Shown: piece after piece, positions 3,183-14,769 of the stretch | Layout: each line of letters begins with the position of its first letter | Position numbering within the stretch: the first letter of the stretch is position 1 | From: PVC group bacterium | Lineage (GTDB): Bacteria; Verrucomicrobiota; Kiritimatiellia; CAIKKV01; CAITUY01 | NCBI GenBank assembly: GCA_945890715.1 | Contig: CAMDCX010000005.1 | Location: forward strand, 2,478 to 66,477 | Direction of reading: 5' to 3' | DNA: 64,000 nucleotides | Translations under genes and position numbers: made by a program | Notes under the pieces: model-generated | What the model was told of the DNA's origin: nothing | What the model saw: the letters and a program-made list of their open reading frames with translations, nothing else | The model's database searches: none

Positions 3183-6100
3183 CTAATTACGCCGCGCGTT
3201 GATCCGAAAAAAATACTGCTGACCGGCGGGCACAGCGCTGGTTACAGAACAGGGGGAATCCTGCCCCTGTATTCCTCCATCCAGAAGCTGCCACGAACCC
3301 TCCAGCAAATTCGACCGGTAGAAAACATCGTAGCTCGCATTCGTCACACTCTGCCAACGAAGGGCCACTTCATTCATTCCCGGCTGCTCAATGGAGAGTA
3401 TGGAAAACTGTAGAGCATCGCCTCCGGCCTCAAGCTGGACGAAGTCATACATCAACCCCCTCACCGGCTGCACCGGCTTGGCGCCCGTCCAGGAGGCATT
3501 CTTGCTGACGGTGAACGCGATGACGTTGGTGCCCGGGTGCAGCCATGCCGGATCGAACGACCATTCCACCTGGCGAAACATGCCCGATTGTGTGGCGCTG
3601 CGGTAGATACTCGCGTCGTTGGTGAGGGACACGTCGGGCAGACTTGTGCCATTGACGGAGGTGAACAGAGTGCCACCCACACTGCCGGCCATGCCCAGCG
3701 TCAACACTACCGGCGCCGGCGGCAGGTCCGTCAACGTGAACTCGATCTTCCACACCGGGCTGAAATAGGTTCCATCGTCCATCGCCACGACGGACTGTGC
3801 GTAATACCAGTCGGCGGCCGAGCTACTGCCTACACGATAGACGAGGTCATTGGTGCCTTGCTCTTCCAGGTAGCGCCACCACAGGCCGAATTGTCGCATG
3901 CGATCACCAAAGCGGAACTCCCCCGCGCTCAGATCCGGCGTGCCGATCCGCCACAAGCGGCGTTCACGTCGTGGGGGTTGCCATTCCAGGAGGCCGAGAT
4001 CATGGGTGGCTCCCGGCGACACGGTCAGGTCGTCCAATCGAAACTCGCCCACCATCCCGGGCACGCGTGCAAACAACGTGTAGTTCCCGGGCCGCACCTT
4101 GGGAATCACGAAACTCCCATCCTCCGAAGCGCGCGTCCAGAACTGGTATCCCTCACTTTGCTGTTGCCAGTAGGAGCCCGGTTGGGCAAGCACCACCAGG
4201 GCATGGTTGGCCGACTCCCCCGGGATGCGCAACCGACCCGCGACAGTCCCCCGCGCGAGCGGATAGAGGGTCTCGTTCATCCACGCGTAAGGCCAGGCAT
4301 CCTTTTCCGCAGCGGCCTTGTTTTGGGCATCGTCCCACAGTTGCGCGGCGTTGGCGCCCGAGTTGATGTAAATGAAAAACGGCCCCATGATCTTGTCCCA
4401 CACCTGGTCCGCCGCCATCACGATGGGAGCGCTGCCAAAATGCTGGCCGTGGGGTATCCAGAGCAGCGTTGGGGTCGTGTCCGTCCCGTGAACGGTCTGG
4501 TTCGCCTTGGTGGGGCCCCCGTTGTAATACTCGACGCTGCCCATGACCATCCATAACCCGATCCTGTCGCTGGAAACCCCGTGCACGAGGTGAGCTTCTA
4601 TCGCGTTCGCCCAATCGTACTTAGTGTAAACCGGGTAATGATCCTCCGTGTAACCGGTTTCATTCGTATAGCTGCTCACCATCGGCAACCGGTGCGTGGC
4701 GTCCATGATCATCGGGCTGACCGTGGTATTCAGCAGAGCCGGCGCGATCATCTGTCCGGTCTTGCCTGGAGAGGCATAGGCGCGCGTGAAGACATTCCCG
4801 TCACAGCGAACCTTCATGAGTGTCTGGGTCAGGGATGCCTGGGGATTGCCCGGGCGGTGACGCCAGATGGCGTGCACACACAGCCCGCTGTCTCCGGCGC
4901 GAAGTGTGTAATGCAATTGCACTTTGAACCCTATGAGGTCGCTGTCGGTCAAGGCAATCTCTACGCGGGAGGGTGTGTTGGTCACCACACGGTAGCTGGC
5001 GCCGTCGAAGGCGACGTTTTCGCTTGCGCCTCCATCCTTGGAGCCGAAGGCGTCATAGTAGATGAGTCCGCCGTTCGCGAGCAGGTTGGCGCCGCCCGCC
5101 AGCCGCAGATCCGTGCACTCCCCGTTGCTCTTGGTGATGACGGCGGAGACAATGCCGTTGGCCAGTGTGAAGGTTGCGCCATTATCCGTGAGTGTGACGG
5201 GTTGAGCCGGTCCATCCAGGGCGCCCTGCAGGGCGAACGTGTAAGGATCGCGTTGCGGATCGGTGTTGCCGATGGAGACCGTGGCCGTCCGCGTGCCCGC
5301 TCCCTGGGGGAGAAATCGCGCCGTGAACGTCGCGGAACCGCCCGCCGCGACGGATGCGGACGGCTGCGAAATGACGCTGAAATCCGCCGCGTGTGCGCCG
5401 GTCACCGTCACTGGCGTCGCATTGGTCAATTCCAGCGCATAGGTCCCCGAATTGGTGATGGTGAACGTCCGCTCGATGGGAGCAACAATCGTCGTCGCGC
5501 CGAAGTCCGTTCCGGCCGCGGCGCTGACGCTGGTCATGCCGTTGGTCACGTCGCTGCCGTCAACGCCGAGAACACGCATCACCGGAAACGGACCCGAACC
5601 CTGCACCGCGAAAGTGTAGGGATGATGACCGAGATCCGTACTGCCGATGGAGACCGTCGCCACGCACGTTCCAGCGCCCAATGGTTCGAACTTCAGGTCG
5701 AAAGTCACCGCTTGGCCGGCGGGAATGTTCGTCGGTGACGGTTGCCGGGTTACCGTGAAGTCGGCGGCGTGATCGCCGAGCACCGCCACGGCGGGCGAAT
5801 TCGTCAGAAACAGTTCGGCCAGTCCGCTGTTGGTAATGGTGAACGTGTGAGTGAGCGGGTCGCCAAAGGAACGGTATCCGAAATCCGTCCCCGCGGCCGC
5901 CGTCGGCGCCGGTTCGCCGCAGGCGATCTCGGCGCCGTTCGTGCCGAGCACCGCCATCTCCGGCACATCGGAATTGAGACTGACCACCAGTCGCACTTCT
6001 CCAGCCCCGGCCTGCAAGGAATACAGTTTGCCGAACGGCATGTCGCCCAGTTCCAACCCGTTGTCCGTCAGGTTCCCGCCGTAGGTCATCAGGACGTAGG

Positions 6101-7487: not shown

Positions 7488-8465
7488 TTACCGTATCGAG
7501 ATCACGGTGCCCTGGATCTGCACGCGGTACCGCACGATCACGATGCCCGAGCCGCCGTTGCCGCCTCCGCCTCCGCCGCCTGTATTTGGTAATCCTGATT
7601 CAGCCGCGATGGCTGTATCACCTGTGCTCACGCGGCCTTTACCTCCGCCACCTAACCCGCCACTGGCAGCCGCGGGGGCAGGCGTACCTCCCCCTCGAGC
7701 GCCGCCACCGCCGCCGCCGGCGTATGGGGTTGGTGTACCTGTAATAGACGACTCTTTGCCATCACCGCCCTTGCCGCCTGCGGGACCAAATGTGTCTGCC
7801 CCGGCGGCCAAAGCTCCGCCACCGCCACCGCCGGCCCGCAGGGTATAAGGTGAAGATTGGCCTCTTCCCTTTCCGCCGCTTGAGCCTTGCGACGGCGTGG
7901 TAGGGGGCATATTCCCGCCGCCGCCGGCGCCATGGTTGCCATCGTTGTTTCCGCCGCCCCCGCCGCCAGAGCCGCCAGCAGCCCCGGGCCAAAGAGTACT
8001 GGTAGTCGTCGAGTGATTCCCGCCGCCCCCGCCACCGGCCGATATGATGCCGGCAAATGAGGATTGACCGCCGTTCTCCCCTATTGCTGTAGCTGTTCCC
8101 TTATTTCCTCCAACTCCGACTTCAATCGGATAATCTTGTATGCTGACAGTCAAACTGCCTTCTCTAAACCCACCACCGCCTCCTCCGCCGCCATAGGCAT
8201 TACCACCGCCGCCGCCGCCGCCGACCACCAGGTATTCGACCTCGCCGCCTGCTGTAACTTCTAATGGGCCGGACCCGGTGTTCGTGAAGCTATGGACTCT
8301 CCAGCGCGTACCCGTGTCGTCCGGATACTCTTGCTCAATTCCGCCTTTGGCTTGCACCCAGGAAGCCTGCGCCGTCCCCATCATCCCCATCGCCAAGGCG
8401 AACACCGCGGCGATCATCCGCACGGATTTGAACTTTCGTGTCTTCTTGAACTTTCGTGTCTTCAT
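7488..8465 (-). CDS. Secreted glycine-rich domain protein
   Basis: 325 aa with signal peptide ...AMGMMGTAQA. It has long GGGGGG runs interspersed with short beta segments and ends ...GGSGIVIVRYRV..., as in glycine-rich-domain proteins. The strand choice is supported by the signal peptide; the overlapping ORFs are Pro/Ala-rich mirror artefacts. Confidence 0.7.
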   Translation of the reverse strand: MKTRKFKKTRKFKSVRMIAAVFALAMGMMGTAQASWVQAKGGIEQEYPDDTGTRWRVHSFTNTGSGPLEVTAGGEVEYLVVGGGGGGGNAYGGGGGGGGFREGSLTVSIQDYPIEVGVGGNKGTATAIGENGGQSSFAGIISAGGGGGGNHSTTTSTLWPGAAGGSGGGGGGNNDGNHGAGGGGNMPPTTPSQGSSGGKGRGQSSPYTLRAGGGGGGALAAGADTFGPAGGKGGDGKESSITGTPTPYAGGGGGGARGGGTPAPAAASGGLGGGGKGRVSTGDTAIAAESGLPNTGGGGGGGNGGSGIVIVRYRVQIQGTVISIR

Positions 8466-8603
8466 GTCAACGATCCTCCCTTGCCGCTTGTCAGTTGCAT
8501 CACATCCCTATTGTTCAAGCCAGTCTACAAGAAGACGCCCTTGTGGGCAACGGATGGAACAGCGGTCTTTGTGCGTTTTTCGCACATACGGCGGAACTGG
8601 GCG

Positions 8604-9452
8604 TTACGGCTTGCCGCGTGGCGTTTTGCCGAAGGCATCGCGGTAAACGTGGTGGAAGTGCCGTGTGTCGGGCATGCCGACACAAACGGCAATATCGGAG
8701 ACCGATAGGTCGGGTTGGGTTGCAAGCAACGCGCGGGCCTGCGCAAGCCGGACATCCAGGACAAATCTCTTGGGCGACATGCCCGTGCATTCTCGGAAGA
8801 GCTGACGGAAGCGCCCCGTAGAAAGATTGCAAAGTTGAGCCATTCGTGTGACCGTCCATGCGGCGGCACAGTTCTCCCGTACCCTGCCAAGGATACGGGT
8901 AATCCTGATATCCTGTTTCACGGGCATTGCACGCAGCCTGTTGCCATGCGTCAGTTGCTCATAGAGAAGCCAGGTGACCACCTGTTGGAAAAAGGGCTTT
9001 CCCATCGGATGGGAGCAGCCGAGAAGGTGCGTACAAGTGGCCAGCTTCTTGAACCAGAGCGCCTTGTCCGCGAGAACGCCAAAGGGGGTTGCGAGCTTGT
9101 CGAAGAAGCGATGCCCATTTGCGTCGACGGCATGCAGATGCAGGGCGAACACCTCGTAGGAGTCGGTGCCATCAGCCATGGTGACGCCGTGCCGTTGCCC
9201 GGCGGAGACCATGATGAAGTGGCCGGGTCCGACATCGCGGGACACGTCTCCGACCGTGCAGCGCAGGCTCCCCTTGCGCGGCACATAAATAAAATCATCC
9301 GGGATGATACGGCTGTCGGGAATCGTCTTGAACTCATCGCTCTCGTATAGCAGGCAGGAGAGCGGCAGGATCTCAATCGCGCCAAACAAGTCCGTGATCG
9401 CCTCACGGTCTTCCGCTGTAAGAAATTCGGGCAAAGCTGATGCTATTTTCAT
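8604..9452 (-). CDS. AraC-family transcriptional regulator (cupin sensor plus HTH)
   Basis: 282 aa. The C-terminal part (...WTVTRMAQLCNLSTGRFRQLFRECTGMSPKRFVLDVRLAQARALL...SDIAVCVGMPDTRHFHHVYRDAFG) is the AraC HTH signature. Confidence 0.85.
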   Translation of the reverse strand: MKIASALPEFLTAEDREAITDLFGAIEILPLSCLLYESDEFKTIPDSRIIPDDFIYVPRKGSLRCTVGDVSRDVGPGHFIMVSAGQRHGVTMADGTDSYEVFALHLHAVDANGHRFFDKLATPFGVLADKALWFKKLATCTHLLGCSHPMGKPFFQQVVTWLLYEQLTHGNRLRAMPVKQDIRITRILGRVRENCAAAWTVTRMAQLCNLSTGRFRQLFRECTGMSPKRFVLDVRLAQARALLATQPDLSVSDIAVCVGMPDTRHFHHVYRDAFGKTPRGKP

Positions 9453-9606
9453 GCCGATTTTTACAACAATGGCGGGCTGTGGTCAATCGGGGAACAACGG
9501 GAACAACGGGGAACAAGGTGACAGGCTATTAGTATAGAAATACATTTACATACGTATAGATTGTGCTAGTCTTTCCACAGTTGGGGAGGAACCCCGGGAG
9601 GTGACT

Positions 9607-9765
9607 ATGCGTAAGGCTAGGATTGTTGAGGTAATGGCGGCGTACTATCACGTGGTGTCACGAGTGGTGGGGCGGGAACGTCTGTTCGACGCGGCGGAGG
9701 AGCGGGAACGGTTCACCAAGACCATGAGGCAGGTGCAAGGGGGGCGTGATAAGTATGAAGGATGA
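9607..9765 (+). pseudogene. Y1 transposase-like (IS200/REP-associated tyrosine transposase type), N-terminal fragment
   Basis: A 52-codon ORF, MRKARIVEVMAAYYHVVSRVVGRERLFDAAEERERFTKTMRQVQG..., below the ORF-track cutoff. It parallels the second copy at 12222. There is no HUH motif or catalytic Tyr. Confidence 0.6.
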
Positions 9766-9810
9766 ATTATGAAGGATGAATTATGAAGGAGGAATTATGA
9801 GGGATGAAAA
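9755..9810 (+). repeat. Four tandem copies of a 14-bp unit, ATGAAGGATGAATT
   Basis: Read directly: ATGAAGGATGAATT, ATGAAGGATGAATT, ATGAAGGAGGAATT, ATGAGGGATGAAAA. Each unit carries an SD-like AAGGA and an ATG. The last SD (AAGGAGG) precedes the ATG at 9797. Confidence 0.9.
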
Positions 9811-10144
9811 GCCCGAGGATTTAAGACCGCGTACCAAGAGGTTTGCGCTCGACGTGATTCGCCTGTATGCAACATTGCCAAAATCAACAGAAGCGCAGGT
9901 GTTGGGGCGGCAAGTATTGAGGTCTGGTACATCTGTGGGCGCGAATTATCGTGAGGCTTATCGGTCCCGATCCAAAGTCGAATTCATTGCGAAAATTGGA
10001 GATTGTCTCAAGGAACTTGAGGAGTCCGGTTATTGGTTTGAACTACTTGCCGAGAGTGCCATGATGGATGCGTCTAAAATGCTGGGCATTCGAGATGAAT
10101 GTAATCAACTTCTAGCCATTATGACCACAATTTCAAAGAAATAA
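9797..10144 (+). CDS. Four-helix-bundle protein (23S rRNA intervening-sequence protein / Avd family, TIGR02436-like)
   Basis: 115 aa. Contains ...RFALDVIRLYATLPKSTEAQVLGRQVLRSGTSVGANYREAYRSRSKVEFIAKIGDCLKELEESGYWFELL..., the signature of this family. A strong SD (AAGGAGG) lies 4 nt upstream. The gene is visibly AT-richer than its surroundings (GC not computed). Confidence 0.85.
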   Translation: MRDEKPEDLRPRTKRFALDVIRLYATLPKSTEAQVLGRQVLRSGTSVGANYREAYRSRSKVEFIAKIGDCLKELEESGYWFELLAESAMMDASKMLGIRDECNQLLAIMTTISKK

Positions 10145-10162
10145 AAAGCAGGGCTTTCATAA

Positions 10163-10185
10163 TTCATAATTCATCCTTCATCCTT
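10163..10185. repeat. Inverted-repeat partner of 9751-9773, closing the four-helix-bundle cassette
   Basis: The reverse complement of 10163-10185 is AAGGATGAAGGATGAATTATGAA; 9751-9773 reads AAGTATGAAGGATGAATTATGAA (22/23 match). The arms enclose 389 bp. Confidence 0.85.
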
Positions 10186-10438
10186 GCTGAAGGGGGTGAT
10201 GGCGGCGAGAGGGAAGTTATCATTGAACGAGATCCTGCGATGCCGGGTGAGATACTTTACGGATGGGGTGATTCTGGGGAGTCGGGTGTTTGTTGAAGAC
10301 CAGTACCGCAAGCGTCGTGGCCTGTTCAGCGAGAAGCGCGAAACGGGTGCGCGTCCGATGAAAGGTGCGGAGTATGGGGGACTGTGTACGGTTCGTCAGC
10401 TTCGGGTGGATGTCTATGGTCATGGCGCGCCGGCGTAG
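10184..10438 (+). pseudogene. Y1 transposase-like protein, C-terminal fragment
   Basis: Contains ...GKLSLNEILRCRVRYFTDGVILGSRVFVEDQYRKRRGLFSEKRETGARPMKGAEYGGLCTVRQLRVDVYG.... It is homologous to the fragment at 14475-14654. It begins exactly at the end of the inverted repeat. Confidence 0.6.
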
Positions 10439-10700
10439 TGGGTAGGGGTTGGAAAATCCGGCAGGGCAGGGCGGATCTCATGCGGCTGGTAGCCAGAACC
10501 AGTCGCATTGGAGCATTGCGTGTGGCATGCCGATTTGGTGTAATCCTGATAGATTTTAAGCGAGAGTTGGTGGCTGAAGCTGGCCTACTGGTTAATGGAT
10601 CGCTCATAAGGGTGTCCTGATTGAATAACATGATGAAAGATAGCTCGGAAATTCACGGCTTACAGTCTATTAGCCGGTCACCTTGTTCCGGTCTTGTTCC

Positions 10701-10946
10701 ATTATCCAAAGCTTGGATTCGATCTCGACGCAACCCGTGGTCTGGAAGGGCCTGCGTCTTTACGGATGCTGGCATTGGAATCATCTGACCGACACCGAAC
10801 GGATGATGCGCACGATTGCCGGCTCGTCAGAACGGATTGACAAAATGATCACGCATCGCTTTCCGATGGAGAAACTGGGTGATGCGTTCGATCTCCAGGT
10901 ATCCGGTTTATGTGGCAAAGTGATCATCCATCCATGGGAGGCATAA
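10701..10946 (+). pseudogene. Zn-dependent alcohol dehydrogenase paralog, C-terminal fragment
   Basis: ...GLRLYGCWHWNHLTDTERMMRTIAGSSERIDKMITHRFPMEKLGDAFDLQVSGLCGKVIIHP aligns with the C-terminus of the adjacent intact ADH. The N-terminal ~270 codons are missing at the element E1 boundary. Confidence 0.6.
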
Positions 10947-11986
10947 TGAAGACAGTTGCGATTACAGGTAAGCAGAGTTGTAAAATCGTCAAAAAACAGG
11001 TGCCGAAGGCCAAAGATGACTACGTCGTGGTGAAAATTCATACGGCGCCTTTATGCACGGAATACACCGATTACCGCGATGGTTGCACTCGGGCGGAGTT
11101 CAAGCGCGGTGACGAATCGCCGGACTGCCTCGGGCACGAGGCCGCGGGAGAGGTGGTCGAAATTGCCCAACCCGGAAAGGTCAAAGTTGGAGATCGTGTG
11201 GTGGTTATGCCGGGGTTCTGGTGCGGAAAGTGCCGCTTCTGCCTGTCAGGTGAATATATCCATTGCCAGAATCCGCCGAACCCCCTTACCCACTGCGGAT
11301 GCGAGGCGGGAGTTGCCGCGTATGCGGAGTATTGCCTGAAGCAGGACTGGCTGCTGTTGCCGATCCCGGACGGGATGTCTTATGACCATGCGTCCATGGC
11401 TTGCTGTGGCCTCGGGCCCGCGTTCAATTCCATGCAGACCATGGAGGTGTGCGGACACGACACGGTGCTCGTCGCAGGCACGGGACCGGTTGGACTCGGC
11501 GCGGTCATCTGCGCCACCTACCGGGGCGCACGGGTGATCTGCCTGGGACGCAACCCCTATCGCACTAAACTCGCACTGAAACTGGGCGCGGAGGCGGTGC
11601 TGGATCCCCAGGATAAGAACATAAAACAACAGATTTTTGATCTGACAGACGGGGAAGGCGCTTCCAAATCGGTTGAAACCACGGGATACCACCTTTATAT
11701 GGATGTGGTGATGAAGTCCACCCGACGCATGGGACAAGTGGCTATTGTTGGCGAGGGTGGCGAATATCCTCTGCATATCAGTGACGGGCTGATTCGCACC
11801 GGTCTTCAACTCCACGGTATCTGGCATTGGAATCTTGCCGACGCTCCGGACATGATGCGCATGATTGGCCGCGTGGGCGGCAAGCTTGACACGGTGATAA
11901 CTCACCACTTCCCGCTGGATCAGATTGAGAAAGCCTGGCAGTTGCAGATGACCGGGCAGTGCGGCAAAGTCATCATTAACCCCTAA
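10946..11986 (+). CDS. Zinc-dependent medium-chain alcohol/polyol dehydrogenase
   Basis: The ATG at 10946 overlaps the upstream fragment stop (TAATG). Contains GHEAAGEVVE, the structural-Zn Cys cluster CGKCRFCLSGEYIHC and the Rossmann motif VLVAGTGPVGLG. Confidence 0.85.
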   Translation: MKTVAITGKQSCKIVKKQVPKAKDDYVVVKIHTAPLCTEYTDYRDGCTRAEFKRGDESPDCLGHEAAGEVVEIAQPGKVKVGDRVVVMPGFWCGKCRFCLSGEYIHCQNPPNPLTHCGCEAGVAAYAEYCLKQDWLLLPIPDGMSYDHASMACCGLGPAFNSMQTMEVCGHDTVLVAGTGPVGLGAVICATYRGARVICLGRNPYRTKLALKLGAEAVLDPQDKNIKQQIFDLTDGEGASKSVETTGYHLYMDVVMKSTRRMGQVAIVGEGGEYPLHISDGLIRTGLQLHGIWHWNLADAPDMMRMIGRVGGKLDTVITHHFPLDQIEKAWQLQMTGQCGKVIINP

Positions 11987-12010
11987 CGGATAGAACACAG
12001 GAGAGCAGCC

Positions 12011-12136
12011 ATGAGCAAGGAAGAACAATGGGTAACGGTAAAAGGAACGGAAGGGCCGGGCAAAGGCAAGCACATCGTCTTCATCAGCGGTGATGAGGAA
12101 TATCGCTCCGAGGGGCCGCCAGGGACAGGAAAATAG
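12011..12136 (+). pseudogene. ThuA-like domain protein, N-terminal fragment (tentative)
   Basis: A 41-codon ORF, MSKEEQWVTVKGTEGPGKGKHIVFISGDEEYRSEG..., where the ...IVFISGDEEYRSE pattern resembles ThuA-like proteins from memory. It ends where element E2 sequence begins. Confidence 0.35.
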
Positions 12137-12221
12137 TTAAAATAGTTTGAAATATAATAGAGTATAGGTTCGTTATGAGTAGAAGAGGCACCGGGAGGGG
12201 TGCCTGAGGGAGGAGACTCAT

Positions 12222-12386
12222 ATGCGAACAGCGAGAATCGTGGAGGATGGGGCGGCATATTATCATGTGATGTCGCGGGTGGTGGATCGGCGTCGGGTGT
12301 TTGATGAGGGGGAGAAGGAGCTCTTTCGCAAGACGATGCGGGCGGTTGCCGGATGTATAGGCTGGCTGAATTTGGGAAGACGCTGA
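12222..12386 (+). pseudogene. Y1 transposase-like protein, N-terminal fragment (copy 2)
   Basis: MRTARIVEDGAAYYHVMSRVVDRRRVFDEGEKELFRKTMRAVAG... followed by a stop. It shares about 55-60% aa identity with 9607-9765, with many synonymous differences. It is preceded by the hairpin GGCACCgggaggGGTGCC and a GGAGG SD. Confidence 0.6.
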
Positions 12387-12440
12387 AGCAACGGGTAAGT
12401 TTTTCGTATAACGATATGTCACGGGCGAAATACTATCTTC

Positions 12441-12468
12441 CTGGTCTCCCTGGTCTCCTCTGGTCTCC
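12441..12468 (+). repeat. Three tandem copies of a 9-bp unit, CTGGTCTCC
   Basis: Read directly: CTGGTCTCC CTGGTCTCC t CTGGTCTCC. Confidence 0.8.
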
Positions 12469-12561
12469 CTACCCAATTAGGGAATTAAGCAAGGTAGGTT
12501 GAATTCCTGTGATGAAACAGGTAGTGTCCCTGCTTCAACTACTATGTGAAGGAGAACGGCG

Positions 12562-14385
12562 ATGAAAGTGTTACCCCTGTGTGTCATGATGATCGTAATG
12601 GCGACTGTCGGGCTTGGGGCAGTCACACGCTCCGACCTCGCGCCCGCCACGATCAGTGTCCTGCCGGCGCAGGTTTCCATTATCAAGGTGAAGGGAGGGA
12701 ACACCATCGAAGGTGAAATCCTGAAAAACGAAGGATCATCCAACGATGTTGTGATCAAGATCGACACTGGCAAGATCGTCAGCCGCAAGCGTTATCCAAA
12801 ATCAGACATTGTTGAAATCAAGCCTGAAAACCTGGAATTACTTCTGGCCAATGCCATCCGGTCGCTTCACACGCCCCCCAAGACGAACCTCACGGAAAGC
12901 GCCTATGCCGCAACGGTAGCGCTGTGCGATGATTTCCTGGCTCATTGGCCCTCGAGTCAGGAATCCAACTGGATATCGGAGCGACGCAAGGAATTCGCCT
13001 CCGAACAGGAAAAAGGCGTCCGCGGCCTCGAAAAACTGGATGGCGAATGGATGCCGCCGATCAAGGCGTCCGTTAGTCGTTATATTGCAGAAAGCCTTAT
13101 CATCTCCAAGGCCCAGGCCCAATACCCGGGTATTGATAATCCCACCTATACCCAGAATCCTTCGGCAAGGAAATCGTATGAACGGGTTCTGGAGAGACGA
13201 CGAGCCATCGCGCGTCGGCTCCCCTCACTGATGAATGAACGCATCCCGATCCTGCTGGCGGCAAAGGATTTCGATCAGGCCGCCTCTGAAATGGACACCT
13301 TTGTCCGGTTCTGGGTCGAGCGGGTAACCCGCAACCGGATCACTCGCGGCAATGCCGGCAAGGGCGGGGAATCGGAGTTTGCCGAGATGGATTTCTCGGC
13401 CATTATCGCCATGGAAAAGAAAATCATGGCCGCCTATCTGAAAGACCGGAATCCCGCCGAATTGAAACCGCCCGCTAACGTGGATCCTGGCATGGTGTTC
13501 ATTCCTGGAGGCCTGTTCCTGATGGGCCGTGAAAATGCGACCCCGGCGGATTCTGATTTCCCCATGCGGCTGATTCGGGTTAATCCTTTCCTGATTACCC
13601 GCTGTGAGGTTTCTAATGCGGAATACCGCCGGTTTGTCGAGCATGTCAAATCCACCCAGGACTACAGCATGGAGCATCCCGACGCGCCGCCCCTCAAGGA
13701 TCACAAGCCTGACGGCTGGAATACTCCGTCGTTGAGCCGGGATGTCCAGCCGGTAGCCGGGGTCGACTGGTATGACGCCTATGCCTTTGCGAAATGGAAA
13801 GGCATGCGTTTGCCGACCGAGGCGGAATGGGAGCTGGCTGCCCGGGGAACAGATTGCCGGGATTATCCCTGGGGGGCAACTTCCCCCGCGGAATTGGTCG
13901 TAAACAATCCTTCAGGGCGTAGTTATATCGCCGCAGAAATGGATAAACGTGACCCCCCGCCACCCCCTCCGCGTTTTTCCTGCACCCGCCAGGAACCGAG
14001 GCCTCCCCGGGTTCTTCCGGTCGAGACTTGGGATGTCACCCAAGGCGTACCTCAGGAGTTGTTGGGCGGACTCTTCACGATGGACTCGGCGGGCACCCCG
14101 TATGGCTTGCTGCATATGGCCGGAAATGTGGCGGAATGGGTTCAGGACTGGTTCGATCCCGATGCCTATTGTGTCATGAGCCAGGACAACCCGGTTCATG
14201 TCAACAAAGGGCAATGGCATATCTATCGCGGCGGTTCCTACTTGAGCCCGGATGCCGAACTGAGAACCACGGCCAGAGGTAACGGCACCCCTCCCTATTT
14301 CAACAAGGGTTGCCAACCCGGTTCAGGCATCCCGATCATCGGGTTCCGGTGCGTCAAGGATATCCCGTCCGCGCCCGGAAAATAG
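12562..14385 (+). CDS. Secreted protein with a C-terminal formylglycine-generating-enzyme (FGE-sulfatase/SUMF1) domain
   Basis: 607 aa with an N-terminal signal or TM segment. The C-terminal ~290 aa contain ...MVFIPGGLFLMG...RCEVSNAEYRRFV...PVAGVDWYDAYAFAKWKGMRLPTEAEWELAARG...HMAGNVAEWVQDW...YRGGSY...GFRCV. The domain is interrupted by a Pro-rich insert (DPPPPPPRF...). Confidence 0.8.
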   Translation: MKVLPLCVMMIVMATVGLGAVTRSDLAPATISVLPAQVSIIKVKGGNTIEGEILKNEGSSNDVVIKIDTGKIVSRKRYPKSDIVEIKPENLELLLANAIRSLHTPPKTNLTESAYAATVALCDDFLAHWPSSQESNWISERRKEFASEQEKGVRGLEKLDGEWMPPIKASVSRYIAESLIISKAQAQYPGIDNPTYTQNPSARKSYERVLERRRAIARRLPSLMNERIPILLAAKDFDQAASEMDTFVRFWVERVTRNRITRGNAGKGGESEFAEMDFSAIIAMEKKIMAAYLKDRNPAELKPPANVDPGMVFIPGGLFLMGRENATPADSDFPMRLIRVNPFLITRCEVSNAEYRRFVEHVKSTQDYSMEHPDAPPLKDHKPDGWNTPSLSRDVQPVAGVDWYDAYAFAKWKGMRLPTEAEWELAARGTDCRDYPWGATSPAELVVNNPSGRSYIAAEMDKRDPPPPPPRFSCTRQEPRPPRVLPVETWDVTQGVPQELLGGLFTMDSAGTPYGLLHMAGNVAEWVQDWFDPDAYCVMSQDNPVHVNKGQWHIYRGGSYLSPDAELRTTARGNGTPPYFNKGCQPGSGIPIIGFRCVKDIPSAPGK

Positions 14386-14474: not shown

Positions 14475-14654
14475 CGACCTCGGATCTCCTTGGGGAGCCG
14501 GGCGTTTGTGGAGGAAGCGTTTTTGAGACACCGGGCGCATTTTAGCACGAAACGGGATGAGGGAGCCAAGCCGATGAAGGGTGGGGAATGGGGAGATCTG
14601 TTTACCGCCCGACAGTTGCGAGTGGATATTGTGGGGTTCCCGGCACCTGCGTAA
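14475..14654 (+). pseudogene. Y1 transposase-like protein, C-terminal fragment (copy 2)
   Basis: Hand translation gives ...ISLGSRAFVEEAFLRHRAHFSTKRDEGAKPMKGGEWGDLFTARQLRVDIVGFPAPA*. This aligns with the end of 10184-10438. It is not in the ORF track (an in-frame stop lies immediately upstream, so no long ORF forms). Confidence 0.55.
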
Positions 14655-14769
14655 CGGGGGTGGTGGCGGATATCAGGATGAATCCGGTCGGCACTTCACG
14701 CCCGCCGTCATCCGGTATTGTGTTGGGATGGCTGATTTGGTCTATTTGCATCCAGTCTCCTTCCCTCCT

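Follow-up and report, generated by a model that had tools for sequence, protein, structure and literature searches.

Within a 64,000-nucleotide stretch of the genome of a PVC group bacterium (Kiritimatiellia; assembly GCA_945890715.1, contig CAMDCX010000005.1, positions 2,478 to 66,477; hereafter the window), a gene for a four-helix-bundle protein lies between complementary repeat arrays and, with them, between two remnants of a transposase gene, and the question that this locus raises is how an architecture familiar from the intervening sequences (IVSs) of ribosomal RNA (rRNA) came to stand there, and whether it forms a unit of its own. An earlier note, made from the letters of the window alone, had proposed a self-contained, stem-bounded module that inserts into, or is processed out of, different host transcripts. 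The analysis described here leads to the reading, to which we assign a probability of roughly 0.6, that the ~447 bp at 9747..10193 of the forward strand, consisting of a left array, the four-helix-bundle gene and a right array, are an IVS-type cassette of gene and heptamer arms that is transcribed from its host unit and processed at its stem. The proposal of a self-contained module residing in different hosts agrees with filled and empty alleles within the genus and with genes 99% identical in scaffolds that are 63-66% identical, and gene and arms together form a separate module of DNA, which is acquired, lost and swapped in its entirety.

Direct reading confirmed the 23-bp inverted repeat (9751-9773 and 10163-10185) with 22 of 23 positions complementary, and a repeat search extended it to 30 nt (9751-9780 and 10156-10185; 27 of 30, 90%) and found four extra pairing registers between the arms. 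By local alignment, the inverted-repeat score of the flanks was 22.5, compared with a mean of 7.9 (standard deviation 1.1, maximum 11) for shuffled sequences, and the predicted energy of the arm RNA duplex was -36.7 kcal/mol, compared with -16.3 ± 3.4 kcal/mol when the right arm was shuffled. The left arm (9751..9810, forward strand, as are all features below unless stated otherwise) contains the four tandem 14-nt units that had been described, starting at 9755, 9769, 9783 and 9797, and Tandem Repeats Finder reported it at 9754-9808 with a period of 14, 3.9 copies and 92% matches. Each unit reads ATGAAGGATGAATT and, as previously observed, carries an AAGGA and an ATG; it is made of two heptamers, and the arm comprises eight heptamers of ATGAAGG/ATGAATT type. 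Because the left array was also scored at period 7 (66% matches) and the right arm (10156..10185) proved periodic at 7 only, the heptamer is the basic unit. The right arm consists of four heptamers, TTCATAA twice and TTCATCC twice, and can pair with the left arm in several registers. In the third left unit, AAGGAGG makes a better Shine-Dalgarno (SD) sequence and the same change removes an in-frame TGA, while the start codon of the four-helix-bundle gene falls within the fourth unit.

The enclosed gene (9797..10144) encodes 115 amino acids from a conserved MRDEK start, or 122 from an alternative in-frame ATG at 9776. Its recognition as a four-helix-bundle open reading frame (ORF) inside the repeat holds, as its product matches both the curated PF05635 model (9.4e-18, 64.8 bits, cut-off 33.8) and TIGR02436 (3.7e-24, 85 bits, cut-off 24) above their cut-offs. 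It also matches the sequence of PDB entry 2RLD, an uncharacterised protein with five chains (E = 1.1e-17). Because the ratio of nonsynonymous to synonymous substitution (dN/dS) between this gene and a paralogue on contig C39 of the same genome is 0.18 (dS 0.46), the gene, which is intact, appears to be functional and under purifying selection.

The surroundings of the cassette had been taken for a protein-coding scaffold but are in fact those of a pseudogene. An insertion sequence (IS)-like element of 1.18 kb (9510..10689), delimited by homology to related copies, has counterparts with 84-97% nucleotide identity in five congeneric species; homology sets in at 9509/9510 and ceases at 10688-10690 where contigs allow, and the flanks beyond the element, within 7500-13000, have no match to them. 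A left terminal inverted repeat (TIR) of 23 nt (9510..9532, GGAACAAGGTGACAGGCTATTAG) is 91% complementary to its partner, the 23-nt right TIR (10667..10689), and an unstranded tandem repeat of 9-10 nt (9488..9516; three copies of CGGGGAACAA, which Tandem Repeats Finder reported as period 9, 3.0 copies and 90% matches) runs into the left end of the element. Full-length transposase copies in the genus have frames of 339-360 amino acids that are 96-99% identical over the C-terminal 79 residues. One full-length copy (L039) encodes 337 amino acids with the HUH motif GNHFHILL and the tyrosine motif GTLWEERYKS, and its product scores above the cut-off for PF01797; it matches the NCBIfam model REP_Tyr_transpos at 2.6e-18, yet below cut-off. 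TIRs are common to the window scaffold and its full-length partner, as in a non-autonomous IS or miniature inverted-repeat transposable element (MITE).

Alignment with full-length copies also defines what is missing. The segments 9509-9741 and 10188-10689 align at 84-97%, and between them the L039 gene has 628 bp where the window has 446 bp instead. The window gene thus lacks codons ~46-254 (~209 codons), with them the HUH motif and the catalytic tyrosine, and is no intact Y1 transposase gene. The N-terminal remnant (9607..9765; codons 1-45, possibly to 49, by tblastn and alignment to L039) is a 52-codon leader ORF that preserves the 5' region and start codon of the element and whose TGA (9763-9765) lies inside the left arm, and the C-terminal remnant (10188..10438, approximately codons 255-337 by alignment to full-length genes) is in a different frame. 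The right arm ends within 3 nt of the start of the C-terminal ORF, much as the earlier note had it: the arm ends at 10185, the remnant ORF begins at 10184 and homology begins at 10188. Because the 628 bp with the catalytic motifs are lost and the frames differ, excision of the cassette would restore no transposase, and the gene is dead. The scaffold is a non-autonomous derivative of a RayT/IS200-like Y1-transposase element of ~1.36 kb, and it is itself a mobile IS-like element.

The limits of the cassette were set by the sequence common to copies in other scaffolds. The left end lies near 9747-9749, where TGATAAGTATGAAGG is common to the C39 copy and locus L168 and ATAAGTATGAAGG occurs also in L177, and the right end lies at 10193, where CATCCTTGCTGAAG is common to four copies outside any transposase (L171-174) and where cassette and scaffold overlap by the microhomology TGAAG. 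The likeness of the left flank GAAGGGGGGCGTGAT to the right flank TGAAGGGGGTGAT was considered as a target-site duplication and rejected, as it is explained by scaffold codons: GAAGGG...GGCGTG corresponds to the codons VEG..GV with a 6-nt deletion, and L177 reads exactly so. Metagenome contigs were also searched for exact patterns of the left junction and of the gene start, with no match.

A search of 5.8 billion proteins, which returned 6416 matches at E <= 1e-20, the closest of them on short contigs, revealed the same cassette in different hosts. In L177 the gene is 99% identical to that of the window at the nucleotide level and has the same left junction, but the junction with the C-terminal scaffold, which is only 66% identical, lies four codons earlier. 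In L168 the gene is again 99% identical, but stands behind codon ~44 of a scaffold from another family, which is 63% identical. The cassette stands between codons 1-46 and codons 262-337 of a third scaffold in L169/L170; at the P0004 loci the scaffold is kept to codon 171 on the left and from codon 294 on the right. On C39 it follows codons 1-22 and runs into the 3' untranslated region, in G002 L016 it follows codons 1-8, in L175/L176 and G024 L007 it is joined to Phage_integrase fragments, and L171-174 have no recombinase gene. Near-identical copies, with genes 99% identical, have two left units compared with four in the window, so that the repeat-number variation anticipated earlier is real. 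The cassette is thus the conserved, exchangeable part, which in this lineage resides mostly inside recombinase genes of mobile elements. Its recurrent stay in such genes suggests hitch-hiking on, or recombination between, mobile elements, and may also reflect site tolerance or targeting.

A related arrangement was seen on freshwater metagenome contigs (L158-L167), in which the cassette lies, at one locus, upstream of genes for a PfkB kinase and a radical-SAM protein and is preceded by a Y1 transposase of varying length. Contigs that start within the gene show at least codons 11-171, and in other samples only codons 127-171 are present, following an unrelated ORF of 203 or 259 amino acids; this is structural variation within a population.

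Sites with and without a cassette were found in the same genus. Two four-helix-bundle cassettes of this genome (G000), at C65:9095-9680 and C6:7279-7878, have hexamer (TCGTAA) arms and, in each case, an outer inverted repeat of 14-24 nt, outside which there are direct repeats of 9 nt (GTGGGTGAA, C65) and 13 nt (GTGATGGGTGGTG, C6). Four species lack the C6 cassette at the orthologous intergenic site, where their sequence is continuous from CGAGTGTCGAG to ACGCAAAG. Simple target duplication was rejected as an explanation of the C6 13-mer, as the empty sites read GTGTCGAG; at C65, the downstream flank is not syntenic in relatives. The junction between dapB and folK exists in three states. It is empty in five species including this one, where stop and start overlap as TAATG. 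In two species, a four-helix-bundle cassette whose arms are of the GATGAAT unit lies precisely between stop and start, and three species have a gene-less hairpin of ~100 nt made of AGTTGTT-type heptamers. Other parts of this genome likewise contain gene-less arrays and hairpins, which belong to the TTCATCC/TTCATAA family.

Contig C78 carries two tandem gene-less hairpins (5519-5700 and 5856-6035) with AAGGATGAAGGATGAGTGATGAATTATGAA arms and a loop of ~150-190 nt, interleaved with palindromes, CCACCGCTTGACAGCGGCGGCTAC and GTAGCCGCGCCGGTCACGGCGTGG, that resemble repetitive extragenic palindromic (REP) sequences. One-sided heptamer arrays of the same family lie at C49:9411-9498 and at C39:1367-1404 and 2435-2507; one of these is a 21-nt unit repeated four times, and the two others are located just upstream of prepilin-type genes, each beside a second array (GAATCCA, GAACATC). 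On C22, a 54-nt fragment of the four-helix-bundle gene near a contig end (28799-28852), 98% identical to window positions 9947-10000, adjoins REP-like palindromes of the C78 kind.

The arms are not peculiar to the window. In this genome, 4/5 PF05635 matches are flanked by inverted arrays, namely the window copy, its C39 paralogue and the two copies with TCGTAA hexamer arms. Across the order (41 genomes), ~25 of 33 homologues have a flank inverted-repeat score of at least 20, compared with ~8 ± 1 for shuffled sequences, and the arms always consist of tandem units of 6-8 nt that vary by copy (GATGAAT, CGGATTT, GAACATC, AGATTGT, GAAAGCT, CCGAGGT and others). For a cross-phylum set, one genome per species was scanned, and the best 80 of 268 relatives were taken, which are 59-75% identical and come from about ten phyla, including Acidobacteriota, Desulfobacterota, Chloroflexota, Nitrospirota, Verrucomicrobiota, Planctomycetota, Bacteroidota and Proteobacteria. 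Arms scoring at least 14, of the same heptamer family as in the window copy, were present in 50/79 of these best 80. In the 50 armed loci across phyla, the left arm extends over the start codon or the SD sequence in 28. Two or more occurrences of ATGA[AG] were seen in the left arm of 5/10 loci at >= 46% identity and of 0/17 below, and, when fixed windows were compared, the right arm belonging to the locus itself ranked at a median of 4 among 47, the others being right arms from elsewhere in the set. Unit sequence thus tracks protein subfamily and not host. The earlier note had held that copies of the family without flanking complementarity, together with a lack of transcript processing at the stem, would reduce the inverted repeat to a by-product of tandem duplication; because arrays flank other copies in the genome, the order and other phyla, the survey did not have that outcome. 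A weak PF05635 match on C11 (22539-22745; 30.1 bits, below cut-off) lies within a 253-amino-acid frame that has GATCCG-type hexamer repeats in its coding sequence and no flanking inverted repeat.

How such a cassette might work at the RNA level can be outlined from its layout. The cassette would have no promoter of its own and would depend on transcription from the host unit, here from the 5' region of the transposase. Its arms would pair in this RNA as a stem of ~20-30 bp, which would be a substrate for RNase III, whose gene is present in this genome, and the cassette RNA would be cut from the host transcript, as it is in 23S IVSs. The stem would also hide the SD sequence and AUG; the inner units of the left array contain both the ribosome-binding site and the start codon. 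Slippage of the left array between two and four units might shift the stem register, partly free the SD sequence and AUG and set the level of protein. For the SD-AUG window, folding predicts a pairing of 0.94 in the two-unit copy versus 0.58 here, a drop that arises because, with two more units, the stem can form at a more upstream position. Translation of the leader ORF into the left arm could have the same freeing effect: its stop lies 31 nt upstream of the four-helix-bundle start codon, and the composites of C39 and G002 have the same leader-ORF layout. The fold of 9740-10200 that had been proposed as a check agrees in one respect, as both arms are paired with each other in the minimum free energy structure.

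Several results weigh against this reading. The same fold, taken over the whole region, is unexceptional (z = -1.5), and the signal comes from the arms and not from the interior. Among 76 arm pairs, G·U mismatches were about as frequent as A·C mismatches (61 and 59), so nothing points to sense RNA, as opposed to DNA, as the form in which complementarity is maintained; most mismatches (197) were transversions arising from swaps of unit variants. A promoter and terminator scan gave nothing above chance, and about a third of the close homologues have no detectable arms. Furthermore, translation of the corresponding protein, S23p, is little evidenced in Coxiella (PMC4990558), and because of this the protein-centred part of the model is not automatically transferable.

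As an alternative, the link with the scaffold could be due to descent instead of targeting, the gene being a passenger of a non-autonomous IS: one old insertion into a Y1 element would have given a composite that was mobilised in trans by way of its intact TIRs and later altered by hairpin-stimulated deletions and by gene conversion between composites, the arms being idle in movement. Retention of both 23-nt TIRs and the presence of autonomous partners in the genus are as expected for such a passenger. The left junctions, all at or before codon 171, and the right junctions, all at or after codon ~247, fit a single ancestral insertion followed by deletions, four composites have nearly the same junction positions, and microhomology is present at the junctions (GTGGA at left junctions, TGAAG and CATCC at right ones). 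However, a gene 99% identical at the nucleotide level in scaffolds of 63-66% requires recent transfer or conversion, for which descent is insufficient; the same subfamily occurs in integrase fragments and outside any IS, and cassettes of the family move without an IS at C6 and between dapB and folK. This explanation, which we regard as possible but doubtful, accounts for the location and not for the arms, and is largely compatible with an IVS-type cassette processed from its host transcript. A more unlikely one is that the cassette is a DNA-level hairpin element, comparable to a REPIN (REP doublet forming hairpin) with cargo, moved by RayT-like Y1/HUH transposases, which would cut and paste its arms as hairpins of single-stranded DNA and, by acting mostly close to the genes that encode them, would account for its place in transposase genes. 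The subfamily shows at least six junction configurations in Y1-transposase genes, always co-oriented; Y1 frames exist in this genome; insertion between dapB and folK left no obvious target duplication, like transposition of the IS200/IS605 type; arms without G·U bias suit a DNA hairpin; and the scaffold is bounded by inverted repeats with tandem GGGAACAA motifs and has a palindromic solo-end derivative. Nonetheless, eight genomes of other genera in the order have armed cassettes without a match to the C-terminal region of this transposase, which was found near 0/80 of the cross-phylum loci, and these two results rule out dependence of the cassette on this Y1 family. Copies are found in tyrosine-recombinase fragments and plain intergenic sites as well, and one long enclosing stem is unlike known Y1 elements, which have short subterminal hairpins.

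That the inverted repeat is merely a by-product of local tandem duplication, or of chance, and has no role is very improbable: the left array is slippage-prone and its unit resembles the start region of the gene itself, but the inverted-repeat score lies ~13 standard deviations above shuffled sequences, complementary arrays surround most homologues despite differing unit sequences, and the arms of a locus pair better with each other than with those of other loci. The cassette separates the N-terminal from the C-terminal part of a single gene and is oriented like both, as would be expected of an intron- or intein-like insertion whose removal restores the transposase, but this idea has next to nothing left in its favour and is ruled out by alignment to full-length genes, given the absence of the 628 bp with the HUH motif and catalytic tyrosine and the out-of-frame remnants. 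An Rfam scan of 9300-10900 gave nothing above noise, with neither an rRNA nor an intron match.

IVSs of rRNA are located in the 23S (or 16S) rRNA gene, typically in helix 9, 25 or 45, and the origin, mobility and function of these sequences and of their S23p/four-helix-bundle ORF have posed questions since about 1990. ORF-bearing 23S IVSs of Coxiella burnetii, Leptospira and Xanthomonas resemble the window cassette in length (~430-450 nt), in their stem of 23-30 bp, in a loop that holds a PF05635 four-helix-bundle ORF, and in copy-variable heptamers between stem base and start codon (PMC4990558). In Coxiella, the stem is 28 bp long and is cut by RNase III in its middle, and two to three GACAGAT heptamers, depending on the strain, precede the S23p start codon (PMC4990558). 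The window cassette likewise has a long enclosing stem with complementary termini and an S23p/PF05635 ORF behind variable tandem heptamers, but it is not in rRNA: it lies in a transposase pseudogene, and its relatives lie between or inside protein genes. Furthermore, its ORF appears to be under purifying selection, whereas that of the Coxiella IVS is apparently decaying, and excision by RNase III, known for 23S IVSs, would apply to the window cassette by analogy only. By anatomy it is an ORF-bearing IVS and by location it is not; it is best classed as a non-rRNA cassette of the IVS type that lies within a dead RayT-like element.

Other known systems share some of these features. Like REPIN/RAYT (REP-associated tyrosine transposase) systems, the family has short repeats that occur as hairpins, gene-less intergenic copies and a linked RayT-like Y1 transposase; unlike them, its arms are tandem 7-nt arrays that vary by subfamily and enclose a gene, and cassettes also occur in genomes without a match to the C-terminal region of this transposase. 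Like a MITE or a passenger IS, the scaffold keeps the TIRs of an autonomous partner, has no working transposase and carries an unrelated gene, but the passenger is a hairpin-bounded module that is also found without any IS. The window protein shares a four-helix-bundle superfamily with Avd of diversity-generating retroelements, and PF05635 is a Pfam family that resembles Avd (PMC10053308). In the ORF list of 7500-13000, in which no hidden Markov model search for reverse transcriptase was made, neither a reverse transcriptase nor a template or variable repeat was conspicuous; the immediate neighbours of the cassette are the transposase remnants, an AraC-type regulator and an alcohol-dehydrogenase-like ORF. 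To our knowledge, Avd genes have not been described with bracketing inverted heptamer arrays.

No description of such cassettes outside rRNA was found in the published literature. New here are the nesting in a transposase gene, the 99%-identical cassettes in diverged scaffolds, the difference of two versus four units with its predicted effect on the ribosome-binding site, and the three-state site between dapB and folK in one genus. The locus and its relatives show that the IVS anatomy also exists away from rRNA, in a discrete unit. Defined sites of a single genus have acquired or lost this unit; it passes from one diverged host gene to another while remaining 99% identical, and it decays to gene-less heptamer hairpins, from which some of the heptamer repeats so common in bacteria may derive. 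A wider and quite speculative proposal, which we consider improbable as it stands, is that IVS-type cassettes are pan-bacterial mobile gene-hairpin modules whose Avd-like pentamer recognises its own arrays, that in this lineage they settle by preference in genes of DNA recombinases (Y1 transposases and tyrosine recombinases) and thereby inactivate them, and that rRNA IVSs are a special case. If this were true, recognition by the protein of its own arrays would explain the covariation of unit type and protein subfamily, and the rRNA IVSs described 30 years ago would be copies of the element that landed in rRNA. We know of no role for the four-helix-bundle family, which has thousands of members, outside diversity-generating retroelements.

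Further traces of mobile elements are present in the window. A MITE-like remnant of the same IS-like element, at 1730-1900, has several GGGAACAAGGTGAC motifs and a near-perfect palindrome (GGAACAAGGTGACAGCCTGTCACCTTGTTCC) together with the right end of the element (84% identical to 10632-10696), and it appears to break an ORF that reads ...LDAGAGSGALT... and is methyltransferase-like by look. Remnants of a second transposase family lie at 12112-12455 and 14484-14760. One piece has codons 1-43 and ~119-140, TIR-like ends and three tandem copies of CTGGTCTCC, and a separate C-terminal piece lies 2 kb downstream. Between these remnants is a gene for a 607-amino-acid protein with an FGE-sulfatase domain (12562-14385, PF03781), and they may be one interrupted element or two remnants beside a gene. 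On the reverse strand, at 7488-8465, an ORF of 325 amino acids encodes an extremely glycine-rich product with GGGGG runs and a signal-peptide-like N-terminus, and, owing to composition, it is overlapped by several long ORFs on both strands.

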